A stretch of 64,000 nt of DNA from Octopus vulgaris. Its lineage: Eukaryota. Below, piece by piece: positions 251-59,402 of this stretch. The notes beneath the pieces are model-generated. The model made no database searches and was not told where the DNA came from. It worked only from the letters and a program-made list of their open reading frames with translations. The position numbers and the translations under genes are program-made. The stretch's first letter is position 1. Every line of letters begins with the position of its first letter. The stretch is taken from the NCBI GenBank assembly GCA_951406725.2, contig OX597831.1:46500001-46564000 (forward strand), given 5' to 3'.

Positions 251-482
251 ACAAGCTGTAACCATCGTCGAAACATATGTCGAAAGTAAAAGAATTTTAA
301 TAACATCTTCGTTCAACTCCATTTATTTACTTATACAACACAAATCACTGCACATTAACCCGGAGTTTCTACCTTTGAATAGGTCGCTTCATCCGTGTTA
401 CTTGCGTGAATTTTGCTACCCTGGTAACTGTTTATTGAATTTTCCATGTTAACGGTAAACAAAGGATAATTCATTCATCCAT
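251..482 (+). mobile_element. Penelope-like pLTR fragment carrying the 3' half of a hammerhead (GAAACATATGTC)
   Basis: Similar to 5167-5390 (gaaacatatgtcga...tcgttcaactccatt...gtgaattt(t)gctacc); embedded between (TA)n tracts; no upstream CTGATGA. Confidence 0.55.
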
Positions 483-1951: not shown

Positions 1952-4656
1952 GCTCAAAAATATATTTTCTTTCATTGTTCACGGCTTCTTGACAACGTTC
2001 CACAAGTTTGTCAATACCTTGACAGTAGAAATCAACCGTCTAGACTTCGAGAATTCACCGAGTCACGTTTTTAGTTTCGTGGCGTTATTGAAAGAGACGC
2101 TTCATAGACTGTTGGAAAGTGACAGAAAAGGTGATAATTTCATGAATCTGTATCAAGAGAATACAGTGGGTGTGGTAGAATCCTCTAACCAAGCACTTGT
2201 ATAGTATACACAGTCAAATTAGCAACTTGGGGGCGAGTGTTGCTGTATTGAAGCACGCTATGTCGTCAGTGTCTGATCGTTTCAGCTGGATTGGCTTATT
2301 GAGCAGGTGCATTTGCTGAACGCAAAGCTCTACATTGACCATGTAATTATTTTGAAGCATTTCGTAGTAGATTAGCCCCTCTCAATCCCACCAAACGCAG
2401 ATCATTGGCTTTTGCGGATGCAGCTCCGACTTTGCTCGAGGTATTGCTTTCTTATAGGGGCAACCATTCTTTCCTCTGATTCATACTGACGGAAAATCAC
2501 TAATTTTCATCGCTCAGCAAAGAAATCTCTGTTTGTGTTCACAAGTAGCCTGGCCTTGAGCGAATAAAATGGTGCCGATAGAGGAGCGTGTGACTCTCAT
2601 GCACCGAGGTTTTGGACTTTACCCATCAAGTAAATGTTACGATCAACGGCATTATAAGAGAATCTCATCTACTGCGCCAGTTTCCTCGTAGATTGGCACG
2701 GACCCTCGTGAATGAATTCGATCAATCGACCCTCATTGAACTAAACAAGTCGTCTGGAATGCAGAGTCTTTGAGGTCGAATTTCTCATTCTTTAAGAGTG
2801 AAAATCATTTCTGAGTAGTTTTTTTCAGTAACAACGCCTTCTTCATACAAAGCACAAATATCTCGAGCGGCTTTGCAGCTCTGGAAACATGATTGAGAGC
2901 AAAGAGAAGCAGGTGTTGAAAATGTTCATTGTTTTCTATATAACACTCTATAATCATGTCTGAAAAGAAGTAAAATTTAATCAAATTTCAAAAATGATAA
3001 ACAAAAGTTGAAGAGGAAGAACATAGCTACAAAAACAAAAACAAAACACTACCACAAAAATATTTTTCGTGCTAATTCAAACATCAGAAAGAAACAAACG
3101 AATTTTTCTGCCAACCAAAAGTATATGTTTGGCCATGGGAGGAAAGGTGGATGCACCACGCAGGATTCAATATTTTTTATTAAGTAAAATTTAATTAGAG
3201 GACAGAAGCCGTGTTATTAGTAGTAGAAAAGATAGCGAGGAGAAGAACCACAAGTGTGTATAGGAGAAGTGGTAGCATGATGGTGAGTGAATTATTGTAA
3301 TACAGCTAAATAGCTTTCTTTTGTATGCGATTTAGGAGATTTATTAGTAGGAACAGCAATGCCGAAGATATGGGAATAATACTCTACTGTAAATTATTCT
3401 TGTGCTTTGCAAAACGTCAGCAACTAATGAGGGATCAGAGCTGATGCAATTTCCAGAAGAGCAGGTTTTAATTTTGTAATGCGGTTTTGGCAATGCTGTG
3501 TATATACGTAAACTTACTAAGCGAGATGGTCAGAGATTGCTGCGTCAAGTACTCATTGCATCTTTATATGTCTTAAAATTATGCATTATTCTTATAAAGA
3601 GAGAGTAATGGGGAATTAAACTGTGATGTTATGACTTCATTTGAATTGTTTTTAAATCTCTATTCGTTGAAACAATGAGAATTTCGTATCTATTAATATT
3701 ATGCCATAAGTCTCCTTTTCTCTGTTTGTCCGTCTTCAAAGAGAGATAACTGACCTTATTGAGTTTACCTCCCTTGGTTACTATATATTAAAATAGAGTT
3801 ACCTGTTATATGACAGCTGAAGTTGGAAAGTCTACTACGCATATAGGCCGTCCCCAATGGTCTTCCATTCAAGACCATCCCGACATCCTAGAAGAAATCT
3901 TGAATTACACTACTTAATTTGATCTTTCCGTATTAAGGCGGTAGGCTGTGATCTGTTGTTGCAGTCTTGTTGTTTTCAATAAGTCAAGTAACCATATACT
4001 GGAGATTAGCAATTGTCGAAAATGCAATCAGTAGGAAAGTCCAAGTTCATTCACTTTGAGGGGTGTGTAGGTTAAAGTTTTTCGCCGAGCGTGAGAAAAG
4101 AGGAAACTGTGCTGTTGTTACTTTTGTGAGAGGCTAATATGGATTTCAACTCAACTACTGCATCCTATTCAAAACGAGATGCCTTAAATTTCTACTTATA
4201 TTTTATGAATATTTTAAGTGTGTCAACTTGCTGGAGACAGATTGTTGTATAATCGAATGCTGACTTCCGACAGGAAAATGCATTATGACGATAAATAATC
4301 AGCTGCTAAGTGCTGTGAGCACACTACCGCATTTCACCCATTTTAACGGATATTAACATAAGAAAGAAACAAGAGAATCTCTATAAATGTTGTTCAAACT
4401 GTTAGAAATAGCTCTCAAATCTCTATCAAGTAACATCCATTTATCCTTAAAAGGTGTAAAAGAATGTCTGTGACAATGTGGACTTAAAAATTTAGAAAGC
4501 TCATAGTCGGAATGTTTATGATCACAAATTCTCCCCATCAAAGTCACCCTGACCCACAAAGCAACAACAGTATATATAAACACTCTGCATAATAAACATA
4601 CATAACGGCGGTGCATCAGCATGGCCGCAACTCTGAGCTGAAAAAAAAGTACATAA

Positions 4657-4818
4657 GCGCAGGCGTGGCTGTGTGGTAAGAATCTTTCTTCTCAATCACA
4701 TGGTTCCAAGTTTAGTCTCACTGCGTGGCACCTTGGGAAAGTGGATTCTATTGTAGTCTCGAGCTGACAAAAGCCTTGTGAGTCGATTTGATAGACGGAA
4801 ACTGAAAGAAGCCCGTCG
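4657..4818 (+). mobile_element. tRNA-derived SINE family B (CORE-like), 5' part
   Basis: ggcgtggctgtgtggtaag head and tggcaccttgggaaagtg core; matches copies at 35458 and 59089. Confidence 0.85.
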
Positions 4819-4881
4819 TATATATATATATATATATATAAATATATGAAAGAATGGAGTTGAACGACTAGTTAACAAATA

Positions 4882-4978
4882 TCCTTTATTCTCGACATAT
4901 GTTTCGAAGGCTGTATATTCCTAATTCCGAAGGAATAAGGAGTACATTATGCAGATTTCTCATCAGGAAAATCAAGGA
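4882..4978 (-). ncRNA. Type I hammerhead ribozyme, mirror copy in the left palindrome arm
   Basis: Exact reverse complement of 5094-5190. Confidence 0.8.
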
Positions 4979-5093
4979 ACTTATATCGACATCAAAATGC
5001 ACAAAAACTTTTAGCTGACCGCTCTCAAGGAGCCATGGCTCCTTGAGAGCGGTCAGCTAAAAGTTTTTTGTGCATTTTGATGTCGATATAAGT

Positions 5094-5190
5094 TCCTTGA
5101 TTTTCCTGATGAGAAATCTGCATAATGTACTCCTTATTCCTTCGGAATTAGGAATATACAGCCTTCGAAACATATGTCGAGAATAAAGGA
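5094..5190 (+). ncRNA. Type I hammerhead ribozyme (minimal palindromic stem III, long stem II)
   Basis: Stem I tccttgattttc/gagaataaagga; CTGATGA 5106-5112; stem II gaa...attcc-ttc-ggaat...ttc; GAAAC-ATAT-GTC; predicted cut after 5178. Confidence 0.8.
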
Positions 5191-5390
5191 TATTTGTTAA
5201 CTAGTCGTTCAACTCCATTCTTTCATATACTTATAATTTTAAAATAAACATACAAATTTCCGCACGAAAACACGTAGTCTATGCCCTAGGGACGTAGCTT
5301 CAACCGTGTTCTTTCTGATGTGAATTTGCTACCCAGGTATCGGTTATCTTTCGAATTATTCTTAATAAGATAATTCATTCAATTACTCAA

Positions 5391-5814
<424 letters not shown>

Positions 5815-6200: not shown

Positions 6201-6223
6201 TATTATTTTAATTTAAAATTTAA

Positions 6224-6280
6224 ACCCTGGACCATGTGTTTTGGAACGATGTTTGTTACCACACAGCCATACTTTCACCT
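6224..6280 (-). mobile_element. Inverted duplicate of the head of the neighbouring family B SINE
   Basis: Reverse complement of ~6468-6525, sharing the variant ttccaaaacacatggtcc. Confidence 0.75.
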
Positions 6281-6469
6281 ATGTATGTGTGTATGTGTGT
6301 ACAGCTGTATATGTATACATTTATTTCTATACATATAGATGTATATGTATACATGTATATGTGTAGATGTATATATATATAGATGTACATATAATATGTA
6401 CACATATATATTCACATATATACATGCATACATATATACACCCATACACACATATACACACACATGCAT

Positions 6470-6790
6470 AGGTACAGGTGTGGCTGTGTGGTAACAAACT
6501 TCGTTCCAAAACACATGGTCCTGGGTTCAGTCCCACTGTGTGGTGACTTGGCATGTGTCTTCTGCTATAGCCTCAGACCAACCAAAGCCTTGTCAGTGGA
6601 GTTTGTAGACATAAACTGAAAGAAATCAATCGTATATATATATGTATGTATATATATTTAAGTGTATGTGTGTGACATTGTTTCTGTGTTTCACCCTCAT
6701 CACTGCTTCACAACTGCTGTTCGTTTATTTACATCCCCATAACTTATTGGTTTCACATGAAGAAACTAATAGAATAAGTACCACGCTTAT
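6470..6790 (+). mobile_element. SINE family B, diverged
   Basis: gtggctgtgtggtaa head; gggttcagtcccactg; tagaataagtacc in the 3' part. Confidence 0.8.
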
Positions 6791-6884
6791 CAACATAAAA
6801 AAAGCACTACGCTGTGTCTCATATTTTGTTTGCCCACTCAGTTGTATCTATCAATTTATCTTTGTGTATATATATATATATACA

Positions 6885-6930
<46 letters not shown>

Positions 6931-6957
6931 TACTCACACAAACGCACACACACACAC

Positions 6958-7011
<54 letters not shown>

Positions 7012-7029
7012 ATATGTGTACATTCATTT

Positions 7030-8268
7030 TTATAATATCAAAGACGATGTCTTTATGTGTTCGTGTATTACTTATACATTCGAAAACTGCTGCACCGATC
7101 ATAATGAAATTTGGGACACAAAATCGAAGCCTAGGGAGAAGGGTAATGCTGTGTGTTTTATACAATATTATACAAAATTACTGAATCGATCCTTATGATA
7201 TTTGAAACTTAGATTCAATGCATAAGGGCGGGTATAATGCAATATGTTTGGTTTGAATTTCAGATGGCTTAAAGGGAGCAGAACCACCCATGAAAATTCA
7301 TAAATTTTCGATGTTGATGAAATTTCAACCATGGGTAATTGACACACATCAAGAAGTATTCTCAAAGTTTCCACTTCACATGAGGATTCTAATACGCCCT
7401 AATGGGGGCCTTAACTCCCAAATTTTAGTCATTTCTTTTATGATCCTAAACTAAGTCAAAAGTACTGAATGGATCTTTACGAAATTTGGAAATTATATTC
7501 TATGCATAAGGGCCACAACTCCCATGACAATTCATATATTTATGCTTTTGATGAAATTTTATCCATAGATATTAGATACAAATGAAGTAATATTTATAAA
7601 ATTTCATCTTCTTACAAGTTAGAAAGACCCCTTCATGGGGACTTAACACCCACAATTTTGTCATTTTATCTAAGCAAAGACGAATAGTTGTACGCTTGGA
7701 AGCTGTGGGGTCATCCGAGCATAGAAGATGAGCATTATTTGTAATTCAATGGCACAACAGTGTAAGAGTTTACTTTGACATACACTTAGATTGTAATTTC
7801 TGCAATGTGCTGCATAAATTGTCAAGTAAATGAGAGGCATCTTGACCTCCACTGATTCAGTTGCAAAGTGTTGAGTAAAGTTATTTGATTGCAGACCTCC
7901 TTTCAGTCTTTTTATTATCACTCGGTCACACATAGTCCCCAGATGGTAACATTGATTTCAAGGCATTCCAAGATGAGTGACTGGTTATTCAAAGACATTT
8001 ATAGATTTTAAATTCATTCTGTCCAGTTACGTACCAGTATAGTGGTCATTTGCAAACTCCAACTTTCATTTCTCCTTAGCCCTTACGTCACACAGTTATT
8101 AATGTTGATTTCAGTTGGGTCACGCCCTTCCAATTGCTATAGATTCATAATGCATCTTACGGTTGTGCCTGTCACCCGGATGGTGAGGAATCCTTCATTG
8201 GGAGTGGTAACGACTAGGGTAGGGTTACTGACTGCTTATTGTGATCATTCATCTTTTGGTTTCCTGTA
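7030..8268 (+). mobile_element. Non-autonomous Helitron-like element; 7399-8268 is homologous (inverted) to 17776-18617
   Basis: Long high-identity match, including near-identical short ORFs 7670-7933(-) and 18119-18388(+); Helitron-type 5' region. Confidence 0.7.
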
Positions 8269-13176: not shown

Positions 13177-15495
13177 CCTCCCCCTTTTGAGATTGGTTTT
13201 GTCCTTTTATTTATTCATTTATTTATTCTTTAATTTTTATCAAAATTTTATTTCCTTGGTGAGAAACTGGCTTACTCTTTCTCTTGGCGTTAATTTCCAT
13301 AATTTCTGTATGTTTTCTGTTCCTGTTCGACCTACGTCTCGGTTCTGCTTTCACTTGTGGTTCTGGGACCTCGAACATGTCATACCATATATCCATTGGC
13401 TCATCTCGCCTTTCTTGATTTTTGGTATATATTTTCTTTAATTGATTAAAATGCCTTTTATGTTCATATTTTGGTCCTTTGACCATGTACATCACATTAC
13501 TCAAACATCCTGTTATATTACATTGTTCCCAGTCCTGTTTTCCGTTTTTATACATTTTAAAATACACTTCGTCACTTGTGTTAAAATATGTCGTTCTACA
13601 TCCTGAATTTTGTATTTTCCGTTTCCTATTCAGCAACAATTTGTTAAACACAGAACGAATCTTTCTGGAGAACATCAAATCTTAGGGTGACCTACCCGAC
13701 TCTGTATTTGGATTCAGTGTTATTCTGTACACCTGTAAGAACTTTGTCATATTTCTATCTTCAAAAGGTTCCCGTCTGGTCTTTCTTAAGGCTGTCTTGA
13801 ATATGTCGTCGAATCTTTCCGCTAACCCATTTGAGCTTGGATGGCATGGCGGAGTTAACACATGCTTCATCTGGATTGACTTACAGATTTTAAAAAAATC
13901 CCTCGCCATGAATTGTGTGCCATTATCTGACACGATCGTATCTGATACTCCATAACGAGCAAACAATTCCCCCGAGAAGTCAATAGTCACATTTGTGGTT
14001 GGCCTTGAACATTTACACACTTCAGGCCATTTCGAATCGCTATCCACCACGATGATATAATAAAAGCCATTTATTGATCCTGCAAAATCCACATGCTGTC
14101 TAGACCATGCTGAATCCATTTTTGGCCACAGCTGTATCTGCACTGGGGGTGCCATACCAGTCTCTCAATTTGCTTGTCCGTATTCGGCCAATACACGTAA
14201 CTCCTTATGAGGCTTTTCATCCGGGCAATCACCGGATGTCCTACATGGAAGCCTTTCAATATTCTATTTTGCAGTACTTCAGGTACTACCACCCTTTGTG
14301 ATAATACATCATCACATACTGAATAATGCTTTGAACCTGCGTTCCACTAATTTTTCGTATTATTTCCCAACAGTATTTTTAAATCTTGTTTATGGACATA
14401 TATTTTCCCGATTTTAACTTAATTTCTTTTAGCGTTACAGGCAGATCACATACTACATTGCACAAAATGTTCTTCAGTTCCATTTCTAGTTTTAACGATG
14501 CAAACACCGTGTCTTCAAAAGGTTCTTTATATTTTGGAATTAGCCTAGACAACCCGTCTGCGTGTCCCATTTTCTTTAATGGCAAAAACTTCATCTAAAA
14601 ATCATAGCTGAACAGGGTAGTCCCCCAGCGCTCTAAACGGTTTGCTGAATGCGTGGGGATACCCCTTTTCGAACCGAAAATAGATAGTAACGGTCGGTGA
14701 TCAGTCTGCAGTGTAAACGTCCTATCTTGTAGGAATTTAGGGAATTTCTTTACTGCGAAAATTAATAATAAAGCCTCCTTTTCGATCTTGCTGTAGTTTT
14801 TTCTGCTACTAGGATGACTCTTGATGCATGTGCAATAGCTTCGATTTTACCATAATTAAATTTATGCAATATCACAGCTCCTATACCATATTCACTGGCA
14901 TCCGATGCCACTATTATTTTCAGGTTTGGGTCGAAATGAATTAACGATAACTGAGGTTAACGTCTGTTTTAATTCCTCGAATGCTTTCTGACATTCATTT
15001 GTCCAGTCCCATTCCGTGTCTTTCTTTAACAAATTGTAATGTTTTTTTGTTAGTGGGAGCAGGCATATTTTTTATCGCATCATCCGTTTTTATCGATCAT
15101 CTGTCGCAAGTACTTTATTTTTGTTTAAAAAATCGCATTTATTTACGCTTACTTTAAATCAATAGTCGCTTATTCTTTTAAAAACATTTTTTATATGTTC
15201 AGTATACTGGTCCCTCGATTCACTTTTGATCAATATGTCATCCAAGTATGGGACCGCAAACTTACAGTCTGCTAGTAAAGTGTCCATCACTTGCTGAAAT
15301 ATTACTGGTGTGACATTAACCCCAAATGGCAGTCATAAAACGGTACAGACCTTGATGAGTATTAATTGTTAATAATTTAGCACATTCCTAATCTACACGT
15401 AATTGGAGGCAGGCTTCTGACAAATCCAGCTTGGAAAAACTTTTTGCCACCATTGCACTTAGCAAATATTTCTTCTGGCCTTGGAAGCGGATGTT
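12964..15495 (-). mobile_element. Ty3/Gypsy LTR retrotransposon, 5'-truncated with decayed pol (RT-RNaseH-integrase)
   Basis: LPFGV and YLDD (~15240); DASEYGIGAV, TDHRPL and HADGLSRL; integrase HVGHP, HVDFAG, IVSDNGTQF, SNGLAERF; multiple stops and frameshifts. Confidence 0.95.
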
Positions 15496-17611: not shown

Positions 17612-18621
17612 CTAGCAGAGATACCCGGCGTTGCCCGGTTACATTCAATTAAAGAATTAGACTTTTCTCTTATATTTTCTGAATGAACTGGAATATCTAT
17701 GTTTCGAATTTCATCAAAATTGCAGATGAGGGTTATTTCCCTCTTTACACACCCTAAAAAAATTGTAATCGTGCCACATGGAAACCAAAAGACGAATGAT
17801 CACTATAAGCAGTCAGTTAACCTACCCTAGTCGTAACCACTCCCAATGTAGGATTCCTCACCATCCAGGTGACAGGCACAGCCGTAAGATGCATTACGAA
17901 TATATAGCAATTGGAAGGGCGTGACCCAACTGAAATCAACATTAACAACTGTGTTATGTGAGGGCTTAGGAGAAATTAAAGTGTCACCTCTGGAGTTTGC
18001 AAATGACCACTATACTGATACGTAACTGGACAGAATGAATTTAAAATCTAAAAATGTCTTTGAATAACCAGTCACTCATCTGGGAAGGCCTTGTAATCAA
18101 TGTTACCATCTGGGGACTATGTGTGACCGAGTGATAATAAAAAGACTGAAAGGAGGTCTGCAATCAAATAACTTTACTCAACACTTTGCAACTGAACCAG
18201 TGGAGACAAAGATGCCTCTCATTTACTTAACAATTTATGCAGCACATTGCAGAAATCACAATGTAAGTGTATGTCAAAGTAAACTCTTACACTGTTGTAC
18301 CATTGAATTAGAAATAATGCCCAACTTTTATGCTCGGGTAACCCTACAGCTTCCAAGAGCACAACTGTATTCGTTTTTGCTTAGATAAAATGACAAAATT
18401 GTGGGTGTTAAGTCCCCATGAAGGGGTCTTTCTAACTTTGTAAGAAGATCAAATTTTATAAATATTACTTCCTTTGTGTCTAATATCTATGGTTAAAATT
18501 TCATCAACAGCAAAAATATATGAATTGTCATGGGGGTTATGGCCCTTATGCTTAGACTATAATTTCCAAATTTCATAAAGATCCATTCAGTACTTTTGAG
18601 TTAAGGCTCCCATTAGTGTTA

Positions 18622-18637
<16 letters not shown>
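17612..18637 (-). mobile_element. Non-autonomous Helitron
   Basis: Minus-strand 5' TC and 3' gcaacgccgggtatctctgCTAG|T; same 3' end as 44400-46420. Confidence 0.8.
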
Positions 18638-18652
<15 letters not shown>

Positions 18653-18749
18653 AGATGCACACACTCACACACACACACAAAGATAAATTGATAGATACAA
18701 CTGAGTGGGCAAACAAAAATATGAGACATAGCCTAGCGCTTTTTTATGT

Positions 18750-18938
18750 TGATAAGCCTAGTACTTATTCTATTAGTTTGTTCTTGTGAAACCAGTAAGT
18801 TTTGTGGATATAAATAAATGAACAGCAGTTGTGAAGCAGTGATGAGGGCGAAACACAGAGACAAAGACACACACACATACACTTACATATATACATCTAT
18901 ATACGATTGATTTGTTTCAGTTCCTGTCTACGAAATCC
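18750..18938 (-). mobile_element. Diverged SINE family B, target of the RTE insertion
   Basis: aagcctagtacttattcta...tttcagttcc-gtctac-aaatcc matches family B on minus. Confidence 0.65.
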
Positions 18939-21236
18939 TTATATATTGTTGTTGGCATCCTTTTTGTCTAGGAGACAATGGAGTTGCGCATAAAATAATT
19001 TAGTCCGGCTTTTTCATTTCATGTCCTAATACATCTCCTGCTATGGCTGTGTAGTTCTATCTTGGACAAACACTCCCTCTGGCAGGTGCCGCAAATGTAG
19101 CGAAGACTTTGCCTGGCTGGTTGTAATGTCATACTTTCTTGTTGACGTCTTTTCTTGTCTTTCCATTTCTCCTCTCCATCTATATCACTCCTTTGTGTTC
19201 CCTCTTTTACGGTACGTCGCCAATCTCCACGGTTGCTGGCAACTGCTTCCCAGTTGGAAATATTGATGTTGCAGGCATTCATGTCCCTTTTGCAAACATC
19301 CTTGTATCGTAAGAACGGTCTTCCCACAGACCTAGTGCCCCTAGCAAGCTCTCCGTTGAGTATGTCCTTGGGGATTCTGCCATCTTCCATACGGCTAACA
19401 TGTCCAAGCCATCTCATACGTCTTTGTGTGAGGAGTGTAAACATGCTCGGTATTCCTGCTTGCTTGAGGACATCTTTGTTGGGGACATGATTCTGCCATT
19501 TGATGCGAAGGATTTTCCGGAGGCAAATAGCATCTCCTTGATCAGGACGCTTCTGATTTTGGTCTTGGCACGCAGACGCGAGAGATTGAACAGTTTCCCA
19601 TCACTTCTACTGTGCAGAAACACTCCATCATTTGATGTCACAAAGGCATGTGACAGCAGCAGCGAGAAGAAGATGCCAAATAATGTAGGAGCAAGGACAT
19701 AACCTTGCTTTACCCCATTTTTCATTTGGAAGGTGGCTGATGTTGAACTATTGTGCTGTATGGTGCCTTGCATATCATCATGGAAAGATTCGATGATCTT
19801 CAGCTTTGGTGGACATCCGAGTTTTTGGAGCAGGATGAAGAGGCCTTTTCTACTTACCAAGTCAAAGGCCTTTGTCAGATCAATGAAGGCCATATATAAT
19901 GGCATTTTCTGCTCTCTGGACTTCTGAAGTTGGCGTATGGAGAATATCATGTCAATAGTTGATCTGTTTCTTCTAAAGCCACACTGCGATTCTGGATAAA
20001 TTCGAGAAGCAAGCAGTTGCAGCCTGGACAGGATAATGCGAGCAGAGGCATTTCCAACAGTGCTTAGAAGAGATAGTGCACGGTAATTGTTACAATCACC
20101 AGGGTTACCTTTGTTTTTGTAAAGCGTAATAATGTTAGCATCCCGCATATCCCGAGGGACTCTACCCGCTTCCCAGCATAGACACAGAAGCTCATGAATG
20201 TGCCGAAGCAGGATGGTGTTTTTGCCGGTTTTGATGATCTCTAAGGGGATGCCGTCTTTTCCCGGAGCCTTGTTACTTGCTAGGGAGTCAATAGCCTTGG
20301 TGAGCTCTGCTATAGATGGCAGACTGTCAAGTTCACACATGACTGGCAAGATCTTGACACCCTCGATTGCAGCCTCAGCTACCATGGTCTCTCGTGAGTA
20401 GAGATCCTGGTAGTACTCCACCCATCTATCCATTTGCTTGCTTTGGTCCTTGATGAGATCCCTAGTAGTTGATTTCAGAGGGGCTGACTTGGTTGCGGAT
20501 GGACCGAGGGCCTTCTTCAAACCGGCATACATCCCACGGGTGTCGCCACTGTCAACAGCTGACTGGATACTCTGACAGATTTCCTGCCAATACCTATTTG
20601 GACAGCGTCTGGCAGTCAGTTGGGTTTTATTTCTTGCCTTTCTGAGTTCTTCGAGTGACTTTATAGAAGAATCACTCTTGTATTACATCAGAGCTGCACG
20701 CTTTGTTTCGATAACTGTTTCCAGCTCTGAGGGCCCAGCAATGAACAAAATCTGGGTTTTGCCTTTCTCTCATGCCGAAAGTATCTACTGATGTGGTATA
20801 CAAAGCTTCCATGATATAATTCCACCTACTTTCAGCAGTGATGGTTGGGCAGCTACTGAGGGAAACTTTGATAGAAACAGCAAAACATTGTCCCAGTGTA
20901 GGGTCGGAGGTTCAGGCAGTGTTAATGCGTGGTCGGCCCATTTTCTTGGAGTGATGGACTTTTTAGGCAGAATCCACACCCTGCTTCTTATTAGTGAATG
21001 ATCTGTGTCACAATCCACGCTGTGGTAACTACGAGTCAGTTGAACAGACTTCAGAAACGGTATTCGTGTAATGATGAGATCCAGCTGATGCCAGTGGTGA
21101 GATCTTGGCTGTCTCCAAGATGCCTTGTGGGATGTCTTGTTGGCAAAAAATGTGTTAGTGATGCACAGGTTATGGTATGGGCAAAATTCAAGTAGTCTCT
21201 GGCCATTGTCATTCATGTTGTCAATACCAAAACACG
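18939..21236 (-). mobile_element. RTE-clade (BovB-like) LINE, 5'-truncated, internally deleted, ~60 bp TSD
   Basis: APE C-terminus (NDNGQRLL, WHQLD, DTDH); RT (PESQCGFR, FIDLTKAFD, GVKQG); C-terminal RWLGHVSRM..RIPK and C2H2-like motif; (CAA)n tail; TSD 18878-18938 / 21237-21301. Confidence 0.95.
19414..20532 (-). pseudogene. RTE reverse transcriptase ORF fragment lacking the catalytic DD
   Basis: 372 aa ORF with RT motifs up to EMLFA, then an out-of-frame fusion to C-terminal sequence. Confidence 0.9.
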
Positions 21237-21300
21237 TACACTTACATATATACATACATATATATACGATCGATTTGTTTCAGTTCCTGTCTACGAAATC

Positions 21301-23032: not shown

Positions 23033-23578
23033 CAGGTCATCCCATAAGTTCTGTCCGAATTTTAGATAAAGAATCCAAGTGATCAAATGTTATATTTAAT
23101 TGAAAGTTAATCATCAATGTACTTTCCCTGATTATCTATGACTTACTTCCATCTATTTACAAGCTTTTTAATCCCATCAATGTAAAACTCTTTTGGTTCC
23201 AAAGCGTAGAACTCTGAAATGTCAGGTTCGACCTCCTCCTGGCTTGCGAAAGTTGTGTCCCCCTAATAATTCTGTAAAGTATGAAACAAATGGTATCCTG
23301 AAGGAATAAGGTCGGGAGAATAAGTTGGATGAAGAAATTTTTCCAAACCAACCTCTTCGATCTTCTGCGATGTGATCTTTGCAGTGTGGGGTGCGCATTG
23401 TCCTGATGAAACATCACTTGTTTTCGACTCACTAAAGCGGCTCTTTTTTCCTTCAAAGCTTGGTTCAAACGCTCTAATTGCTGACAGTAGACTTGAGCAT
23501 CGATTGTTGCATTAGGTGGTAACAATATAAAGTGAATTACGCCTTTGCAATAGCACCAGATAGAGTAGAACCTTTTTC
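23033..23578 (-). mobile_element. Mariner transposase 3' fragment with one TIR
   Basis: YCQQLERL, FHQDNAHP and a frameshifted SPDL.PS.YHLF; TIR-like tcaggtcatcccataagttctgtccgaattt. Confidence 0.9.
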
Positions 23579-23579
23579 T

Positions 23580-23662
23580 CATGGTGCCACGCAGTGGGAC
23601 TGAACCCGGAAGCATGTGGTTGGTAAGCAGGCTACTTACCACACAGCCATTCCTACGCCTAT
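23580..23662 (-). mobile_element. SINE family B head
   Basis: Reverse complement of ggaatggctgtgtggtaagtagc...gggttcagtcccactgcgtggcacc. Confidence 0.85.
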
Positions 23663-23769
23663 ACCACGCCTATATGTGAGTGCGTGTATGTGTGGGTGTG
23701 TGTATGTATGTATGTACACACATATATATATATATATGCATGTATAATTGCATGCCTTTATATTTGTAT

Positions 23770-27229: not shown

Positions 27230-27650
27230 TGAAAATATTGGTTTCAAATTTCGGTACAAGACCAGCACTTTCGGAAGAGAGGCCAAGTCGATTACATCGA
27301 CCCCAGTGCTCAACTAGTACTCATTTTATCGACACCAAAGAGATAAAAGGTAAAGTCGACCATGGCGGAATTTGAACACCGAACGTAAGTGGTATTTCGT
27401 CTGCCGCTACGTTCTGAGTTCAAATTCCGCCGATGTCGACTTTGCCTTTCATCCTTTCGGGGTCGATTAAATAAGTACCAGTTACACACTGGGGTCGATA
27501 TAATCGACTTAATCCGTTTGTCTGTCCTTGTTTATCCTCTTTGTGTTTAGTCCCTTGTGGGTAGTAAAGAAATAAGGACGTAAGGACAGACGAAATTCCA
27601 CGAAACATTTTGCCCGGCGTGCCAACGATTTTGCAAGCTCACCACCTTGG
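27230..27650 (-). mobile_element. SINE family A (minus) interrupted by a plus-strand family A copy at 27390-27575
   Basis: Outer body split at gaacgtaag / ggacgtaag (9 bp TSD-like). Confidence 0.85.
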
Positions 27651-35457: not shown

Positions 35458-35860
35458 TGCAGGAGTGGCTGTGTGGTAAGTAGCTTGCTAAACAACCACA
35501 TGGTTCCGGGTTCAGTCCCACTGCGTGGCATCTTGGGCAAGTGTCTTCTGCTATAGCCCCGGGCCGACCAATGCCTTGTGAGTGGATTTGGTAGATGGAA
35601 ACTGAAAGAAGCCTGTCGTATATATGTATATATATATATATGTGTGTGTGTTTGTGTGTCTGTGTTTGTCCCCCTAGCATTGCATGACAACCGATGCTGG
35701 TGTGTTTACGTCCCCGTAACTTAGCGGTTCGGCAAAAGAGACTGATAGAATAAGTACTGGGCTTACAAAGAATAAGTCCCGGGGTCGATTTGCTCGACTA
35801 AAGGCGGTGCTCCAGCATGGTCGCAGTCAAATGACTGAAACAAGTAAAAGAGTAAAGAGT
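35458..35860 (+). mobile_element. SINE family B, full length
   Basis: tRNA-like head, core, internal TA/TG tract, 3' aaatgactgaaacaagtaaaag. Confidence 0.93.
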
Positions 35861-50436: not shown

Positions 50437-50688
50437 ACATACATACATACATACATACATACATACACTTAGGGGTGGATAAGTAGTCAGCTAATCAGTT
50501 TATTAATTAGCTAGTTATATATATATATCTGTAGAAGCTCCTTCTATAAAATAAATTAATTTACTCTGCTATGTATTGAGTACCTTATTTACTGTGGTTA
50601 ACCCCGACTCAACCCGGGACCTACATATATATATATATATATATAGGTGAGAAAGTTGGTGTGTGAAAGCACGTGGTTGAATATATAG

Positions 50689-50918
50689 AAAATAGTAAAA
50701 AGTGAAAAAACTACAGAAGGCTTGTTTTAAAAGGTTAAAAAATATATATTTGAGTCATTATGTCAGAAGAATGTTATAAATTTTTTTCTTACACTGACAT
50801 AGTTTTTGATGTCACTGTATGAAAAAATTTATAACATTCTTCTGACATAATGACTCAAATATATATTTTTTAACCTTTTAAAACAAGCCTTCTGTAGTTT
50901 TTTCACTTTTTACTATTT

Positions 50919-50919
<1 letters not shown>
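50689..50919. repeat. Inverted repeat with ~99 bp near-perfect arms, probable inverted pLTR
   Basis: 50689-50787 is the reverse complement of 50822-50919; imperfect symmetry continues into the spacer. Confidence 0.92.
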
Positions 50920-51002
<83 letters not shown>

Positions 51003-59088: not shown

Positions 59089-59254
59089 AGGCGCAGGAGT
59101 GGCTGTATGGTAAGTAGCTTGCTTACCAGCCACATTGTTCCGTGTTCATTCCCACTGCGTGGCACCTTGGGCAAGTATCTTCTACTATAGCCTCGGGCCG
59201 ACCAAAGCCTTGTGAGTAGATTTGGTAGACGGAAACTGAAAGAAGCCCATCGTA

Positions 59255-59314
<60 letters not shown>

Positions 59315-59402
59315 CACACATATATACGATGGGCTTCTAATATATAATAATATTAGGGAGTATATCCAAACTTACATGAAAAAATAGATTTCTAATTTAA
59401 TT

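Follow-up and report, generated by a model that had tools for sequence, protein, structure and literature searches.

A loop-less, hammerhead-bearing palindrome in Octopus vulgaris DNA is probably a head-to-head pair of truncated Penelope-like element ends

INTRODUCTION

Insertions of endonuclease-bearing Penelope-like elements have a recognizable form, in which an inverted, 5'-truncated copy is combined with a one-sided tail, as described in sections of PMC8557442 and PMC3846280. The inverted junctions are palindromic and mostly in head-to-head order, and self-priming on an antisense template is the favored source of the inverted copies (sections of PMC3846280). According to the portion of PMC11167929 available to us, a Penelope-like protein nicks and extends both target strands in vitro, and two internal RT start sites define the tail. 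The hammerhead of that element needs the protein for cleavage and is dispensable for insertion in vitro; inverted insertions are not discussed in that portion.

Hammerhead motifs have been cataloged in several of these elements. In the available part of the supplement of PMC8557442, Penelope-13_HM carries the motif on both strands and uses (TA)n targets, and Hydra-clade elements have a palindromic stem III; a Hydra family from Octopus bimaculoides is listed in the same study. Dual hammerheads 100 to 700 bp apart on opposite strands are described for Schistosoma in the accessible sections of PMC4209133, and dimer cleavage of PLE hammerheads is reported as cited in an excerpt of PMC6765202. The literature that we searched on Penelope-like elements, hammerheads, and octopus held no description of the family reported here and no two-primer model for Penelope inversions; the family may already be cataloged in a repeat library such as Repbase or Dfam.

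Here, we analyzed a palindrome within a 64,000-nucleotide stretch of Octopus vulgaris DNA, referred to as the window. There is a strong probability that the locus is a dead, head-to-head pair of 5'-truncated ends of an abundant Penelope-like retroelement, lying in (TA)n. The hammerhead motifs are probably passengers, and the palindrome was likely made in one insertion and is likely inert at this site.

RESULTS

A loop-less palindrome with a one-sided tail lies in (TA)n.

The palindrome spans 4837 to 5235 with its center at 5035|5036, and in the window sequence its arms differ by one indel and one substitution. Thirty-three perfect pairs extend outward from the center and are followed by the indel (T5 in the left arm, T6 in the right arm). 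Beyond this point the arms are identical to 4843/5229, mismatched at 4842/5230, and paired again to 4837/5235, and the blastn self-match of 4837 to 5235 has 99% identity over 400 columns. The preliminary description of this DNA had claimed a spacerless palindrome with arms differing by one indel, which is confirmed here with the correction that pairing reaches 4837/5235, past the mismatch. It had overlooked the tail, the (TA)n ends, and an old copy at about 264 to 477. The element is thus larger than first described, with a tail on the right side only, to about 5392, and (TA)n bordering the insertion on both sides (Table 1). No target-site duplication was readable inside the (TA)n. The repeat that flanks the left (TA)n has relatives at 59091-59279, at 35459-35640, and elsewhere in the window, "SINE-like" being a label only.

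TABLE 1 Features of the locus and of its relative in the window
Feature	Positions	Strand	Basis or comment
(TA)n target, left side	4819-4836		Sequence; lies in the microsatellite of a dispersed repeat labeled SINE-like (about 4650-4840)
Inverted, 5'-truncated copy of the element end	4837-5035	-	Its 3' end is family position 5235
Left type I hammerhead motif	4882-4978	-	Core 4966-4960; predicted cut after 4894
Self-complementary 8-mer GCCATGGC, native to the element	5032-5039		Position at the center and upstream letters of other copies
Direct, 5'-truncated copy of the element end (right arm)	5036-5235	+	Self-comparison; family contigs
Right type I hammerhead motif	5094-5190	+	Core 5106-5112 and 5167-5178; predicted cut after 5178
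One-sided tail, about 157 nt, belonging to the element	5236-5392	+	Old-copy homology; family contigs; recurrent end 5392
(TA)n target, right side, then (TG)n	5394-5479		Sequence
Old diverged family copy	264-477	+	69% identity; (TA)n on both sides

The inversion point coincides with the self-complementary 8-base word GCCATGGC; only 3 of 349 other 8-mers in 5037 to 5392 are self-complementary. At 5087 and 5158, both arms carry letters that are rare in public sequencing runs, as expected if they came from a single template or source locus or were converted later. At 5230 the arms differ; either letter is frequent there in the family (T makes up 47 to 69% of depth), and this difference may be target-derived or may reflect a second template or a later change. 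The insertion had been called young. The 99% identity of the arms is compatible with that age, but gene conversion from arm to arm could mimic such identity. A 49-codon open frame at 4889-5035 (-) crosses the left-arm hammerhead, and its right-arm version is broken by the T5/T6 indel. No homologue of this frame was found, and it is probably due to chance.

Each arm contains a type I hammerhead motif.

In the right motif, the 5' strand of stem I (5094 to 5105) is followed by CUGAUGA (5106 to 5112), a 54-nt stem II region (5113 to 5166), GAAA (5167 to 5170), C-AUAU-G (5171 to 5176), and UC, and the 3' strand of stem I occupies 5179 to 5190. Stem I is paired at 11 of its 12 positions, including one G-U, with the mismatch at 5099/5185. 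The mirror motif reads from 4978 to 4882, and the two motifs read away from the center on opposite strands. With the core CUGANGA, GAAA, and NUH in type I order and stem I nearly complete, the earlier claim of a type I hammerhead in each arm holds for the motif. The claim of a palindromic, dimer-type stem III holds as well, since the segment is self-complementary over 8 nt with a predicted self-duplex of -7.0 kcal/mol.

Our own type I descriptor returned two matches in the 64-kb window, which are these two motifs, and none in 100 first-order-Markov controls of 64 kb, with both strands scanned. Rfam did not recognize the motif: a search of 5040 to 5400 with E values up to 10 gave no hammerhead family and a single match, to a snoRNA at E 6.6, and no hammerhead family was present among the 150 of 191 whole-window matches listed. 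The Rfam matches listed consisted of microsatellite and hairpin noise below the gathering scores, for example mir-561 on the palindrome center. The long stem II probably explains the Rfam miss.

Three helices can form in the motif: stem I, stem II with a 3-bp base followed by mismatches, and stem III either as 2 bp or as an 8-bp dimer duplex. Stem II is only partly paired, with 3 bp, mismatches at 5116/5117, another 3 bp, a mismatch at 5121/5158, and a distal hairpin. Compared with shuffled sequences, the 99-nt motif has only a moderate folding advantage (z of -1.79; 9 of 200 shuffles were as good), and imposing the ribozyme fold on 5094 to 5192 costs 4.2 kcal/mol relative to the free ensemble.

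Read-through RNA is predicted to mask the ribozyme.

RNA read through the locus from either side is predicted to form a hairpin of about 200 bp at -343 kcal/mol. The predicted cost of adopting the ribozyme fold is about 6 to 7 kcal/mol for RNA starting at 4990 or later and 44 to 142 kcal/mol for RNA starting at 4950 or earlier; the latter prediction supports the earlier proposal that read-through RNA masks the ribozyme. In any RNA that crosses the locus, the antisense arm would be transcribed before the ribozyme, which the hairpin would then bury. According to these predictions, the ribozyme should be foldable only in RNA that starts within about 50 nt upstream of the center or inside the arm, and such RNA probably needs a dimer partner or a protein. 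A dimer in cis between the two motifs was considered and rejected because of their placement on opposite strands. Any one transcript contains a single ribozyme together with its antisense, so the motifs cannot help each other.

The locus resembles Penelope-like insertions more closely than retrozymes in its arrangement.

The closest likeness is to the insertion units of endonuclease-bearing Penelope-like elements, as set out in sections of PMC3846280 and PMC8557442: truncated copies placed head to head, a palindrome where they join, a tail confined to one side, and insertion at a microsatellite. The locus differs from those units in that it has no coding sequence and no readable target-site duplication, and its tail is about 157 nt, whereas the published tails are 30 to 40 nt. 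It shares with Hydra-clade elements insertion into (TA)n and a hammerhead with a palindromic stem III, located about 100 to 200 nt from the 3' end in those elements and 214 nt from cut to end here (PMC8557442, in part). The Hydra motifs listed in that source have a short stem II and a stem I of 4 to 9 bp, in contrast to the 54-nt stem II and 12-position stem I found here. The sequence of the Hydra-1_Obim motif given there differs from this locus, which offers no protein for clade assignment.

Metazoan pLTR hammerheads, as presented in the available sections of PMC4209133, have the type I topology, an intact core, a palindromic stem III suited to dimers, and opposite-strand pairs in common with this locus. 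Those motifs are minimal or variant forms; this one is not minimal and has a 12-position stem I, a 54-nt stem II region, and a closed C-AUAU-G stem III. Unlike pLTR hammerheads as described in that source, it needs no extra nucleotide between the core and stem II. Metazoan non-LTR retrozymes are similar in being noncoding, in carrying a type I hammerhead, and in their proposed Penelope ancestry (PMC7229834 and bioRxiv 10.64898/2026.07.22.740005, both in part). Retrozymes form head-to-tail tandem repeats that yield circular RNAs (PMC7229834, same sections), whereas this locus is a single head-to-head insertion with motifs on opposite strands.

The element belongs to a large, dispersed family.

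Parts of 4843 to 5390 were present in 20 of the 24 sequencing runs listed, representing nine studies and four organisms; the best run held a fraction of 0.67 of 36 words from this segment, and none of the runs listed is recorded as RNA. In organisms A and B the family is highly abundant, and words from it also occur in runs of organisms C and D. We used 4996 to 5394 as the reference for contigs of four public runs (X1, X2, X3, and X9), with a likeness threshold of 80%. The numbers of contigs placed were 1,789, 1,971, 1,263, and 176 in the four runs, which is not a copy number. The three DNA runs, with 1,263 to 1,971 contigs each, indicate a large, varied, and dispersed family. The RNA nature of run X9 (176 contigs) is only a guess, and its contigs are no evidence of transcription.

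The family contigs define recurrent ends. Among the 24 of 259 loose ends listed, those of X2 include copies that run into (TA)n at 5235 (19 contigs) or at 5392 (14 contigs). This locus has the same two ends, and the tail between them was covered by family contigs in all four runs. In the loose ends listed for X1, X3, and X9, where up to 30 letters are visible, copies continue upstream of 5037 with different sequence. Because other copies run on in this way, the palindrome is a truncation product. The letters before 5037 are those of the center in X3 (10 contigs) and X9 (1 contig), and the X1 consensus (8 contigs) differs at one. Since the X3 and X9 upstream sequences end in the same letters as the center, GCCATGGC is the element's own word.

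Other inverted joins of the family were also detected. One X3 contig has an opposite-strand joint at 5036/5217, which we read as a candidate for another head-to-head insertion with its break at this word. In one X1 contig, inverted pieces with different breakpoints are joined through a short TA spacer; two separate insertions could also explain this contig. Among the 32 of 5,235 pieces listed from the four runs, none spanned the exact center of this palindrome.

The old copy at about 264 to 477 in the window matches the element at E 2.5e-11 by blastn and E 9.3e-14 by nhmmer. A (TA)n tract precedes its start, which falls within stem II, and no inverted partner accompanies it. Of the hammerhead core it retains the 3' half and lacks the CUGAUGA half, and its tail is complete. 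The local score of the tail against this copy was 101.5, whereas none of 1,942 randomly chosen segments of the window scored above 54.5. Family matches in the 64-kb window numbered only three, and no tandem array of the element was found there.

The variable positions listed lie outside the ribozyme core.

At least 38 places vary among the copies (40 rows are listed), and 13 of these lie inside the 97-nt motif. None of the 13 falls in the 19 core and stem III positions, for which the hypergeometric P value is 0.047, or 0.10 over the whole element, and this comparison is weak and is biased by recruitment at 80% identity to this sequence. Stem I and proximal stem II contain 10 alternative letters (unphased), of which 6 form or preserve a pair, 1 can pair only together with another variant, and 3 break a pair; 2 of the 3 pair-breaking letters adjoin the existing stem I mismatch. 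Ribozyme features may thus have been selected in the family. Positions 5116, 5117, and 5158 are mismatched in this copy and have the pairing letter in other copies, and at 5158 the other letter accounts for more than 99% of depth in all four runs. This copy's hammerhead therefore looks weakened, as judged from unphased alleles.

Searches for a coding partner and for kin.

Protein searches limited to longer proteins, with the 49-amino-acid left-arm frame and a 61-amino-acid frame of the old copy, scored 0 of 5 and 0 of 3 candidates, respectively. No Pfam match to GIY-YIG was found in 102 of the 223 complexity-filtered window frames, the arm frame included, and no tRNA gene was found. The PMC8557442 supplement contained none of eight short motifs taken from the element, and a motif search of the PMC4209133 supplement, covering all but one file, was blank. 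A spaced core pattern gave three metagenome matches and seven viral-contig matches, which were dropped as chance because they had no blastn similarity to the element. Three of these 10 matches, L001 to L003, lie antisense within a LINE-like RT frame (a label taken from translations), and no inverted repeat surrounds the pattern in them. A tighter core pattern had no matches in genome contigs or viral contigs.

DISCUSSION

The features found at this locus and in its family are those of endonuclease-bearing Penelope-like elements. Copies are dispersed, lack their 5' parts, and have fixed 3' ends; an inverted copy is joined head to head, with a palindrome at the junction; a tail lies between two recurrent 3' ends (atypical at about 157 nt); and the terminal repeat region contains a hammerhead motif. 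The truncated inverted copy, the one-sided tail, the recurrent ends, and the (TA)n support the Penelope-like origin with an inverted end-repeat that the preliminary description had suggested. Membership in this class is likely on structural grounds; the protein and window-frame searches linked no RT and GIY-YIG frame to the family. The same description had also proposed that the palindrome is a nonautonomous or retrozyme-like element in its own right. This part was not supported: the window contains no tandem array, no go-back joint is present among the two joints listed, and the family ends run into (TA)n. The locus looks instead like one truncated insertion of a longer element.

We infer that priming on two strands and at two start sites is the most likely route of formation. 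The RT and GIY-YIG protein of a full-length copy elsewhere would nick both strands of a (TA)n target. One strand would prime cDNA at the outer start site (about 5392), and the other strand would prime at the inner start site (5235). Both cDNAs would stop near 5032 to 5039 and anneal via the self-complementary 8-mer, and fill-in would then complete a palindrome that has no loop and is tailed only at one end. By an alternative route, a single cDNA would snap back at the 8-mer and give the same product. The hammerhead would be copied twice as a passenger because it lies between the truncation point and the start sites. With its ends on two recurrent family ends and its fold on a native palindrome, the locus suggests that a census of breakpoints and arms could separate two-strand priming from snap-back.

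As a single locus, this is expected debris of a known retroelement class, and the pattern has already been described; its value is as a clean example for asking how Penelope-like elements make inverted insertions. The hammerhead with a large stem II is missed by Rfam models and would be a candidate for ribozyme catalogs if it cleaves.

A less likely interpretation is that the whole family is a nonautonomous, Penelope-dependent ribozyme element without a coding partner in cis, for which folding back at GCCATGGC is regular and the product is possibly remobilized. We consider this doubtful. Nonautonomous PLE derivatives have been described (PMC8557442 and bioRxiv 10.64898/2026.07.22.740005, in the sections available), and neither the protein searches nor Pfam on window frames found a link to an open reading frame. 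The great abundance in organisms A and B, the words in organisms C and D, and the second joint at 5036 in one X3 contig also agree with it. However, with 30 letters at most visible upstream of 5037, the absence of an open reading frame is not established; the exact junction is unrepeated among the contigs listed, the other inverted joins have different breakpoints, and the old copy in the window has no inverted partner. There is a correspondingly small chance that the locus represents an undescribed, very abundant Penelope-dependent family with a large hammerhead (54-nt stem II and long stem I), a tail of about 157 nt, and a fold-back hotspot at the 8-mer. If so, its thousands of copies would preserve traces of in vivo priming on two strands and at two start sites, and the palindrome may be remobilized or may supply long double-stranded RNA to editing or silencing pathways.

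Fold-back chimeras arise at short self-complementary sites, and the exact center was not seen in the pieces listed from four independent runs, as would fit a palindrome created during assembly or library preparation. We regard such an artefact as very improbable. The mirror stops at a recurrent family end (5235 followed by (TA)n) and adjoins an unrelated flank, and the tail and right flank are not mirrored. The arms differ at two places, one of which (5230) has both letters common in the family. Inverted joins of the family occur in other samples, and the window contains two other palindromes of unrelated sequence.

It is most improbable of all that the locus is a stray unit of a tandem non-LTR retrozyme of the circular-RNA type: the type I hammerhead with a closed stem III and a long stem I would suit one, and mussel retrozymes have been reported, but retrozymes are defined by head-to-tail repeats of 150 to 450 bp (PMC7229834, in the sections available), and here the window lacks tandem copies, neither of the two joints listed is a go-back joint, and the ends run into (TA)n.

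We prefer the reading of the locus as a pair of truncated Penelope-like ends, and it sits in a window that is AT-rich and dense in microsatellites and repeat debris. Broken LTR-retrotransposon integrase and RNase H frames, a LINE reverse transcriptase remnant, and a mariner-type transposase piece were identified by Pfam at 13226-14846 (-), 19022-21279 (-), and 23160-23669 (-). Long inverted repeat pieces that are 87 to 94% alike lie about 10 kb apart at 6639-8264 and 17780-18903, with LINE-like and LTR-retrotransposon fragments between them. Short inverted SINE-like pairs occur at 59241-59338, 6223-6527, and 27285-27510, two of the three around microsatellite tracts. A 216-bp inverted repeat at 1736-1951, with arms of about 100 bp and a spacer of about 20 nt, is not TA-flanked and is possibly another fold-back insertion or a MITE. 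A second, nearly loop-less palindrome of unrelated sequence lies at 50681-50927 between (TA)n tracts (50647-50927); no hammerhead core was found in it by a relaxed scan, and its one-sided left extension of about 35 nt is the textbook length of a Penelope-type tail.
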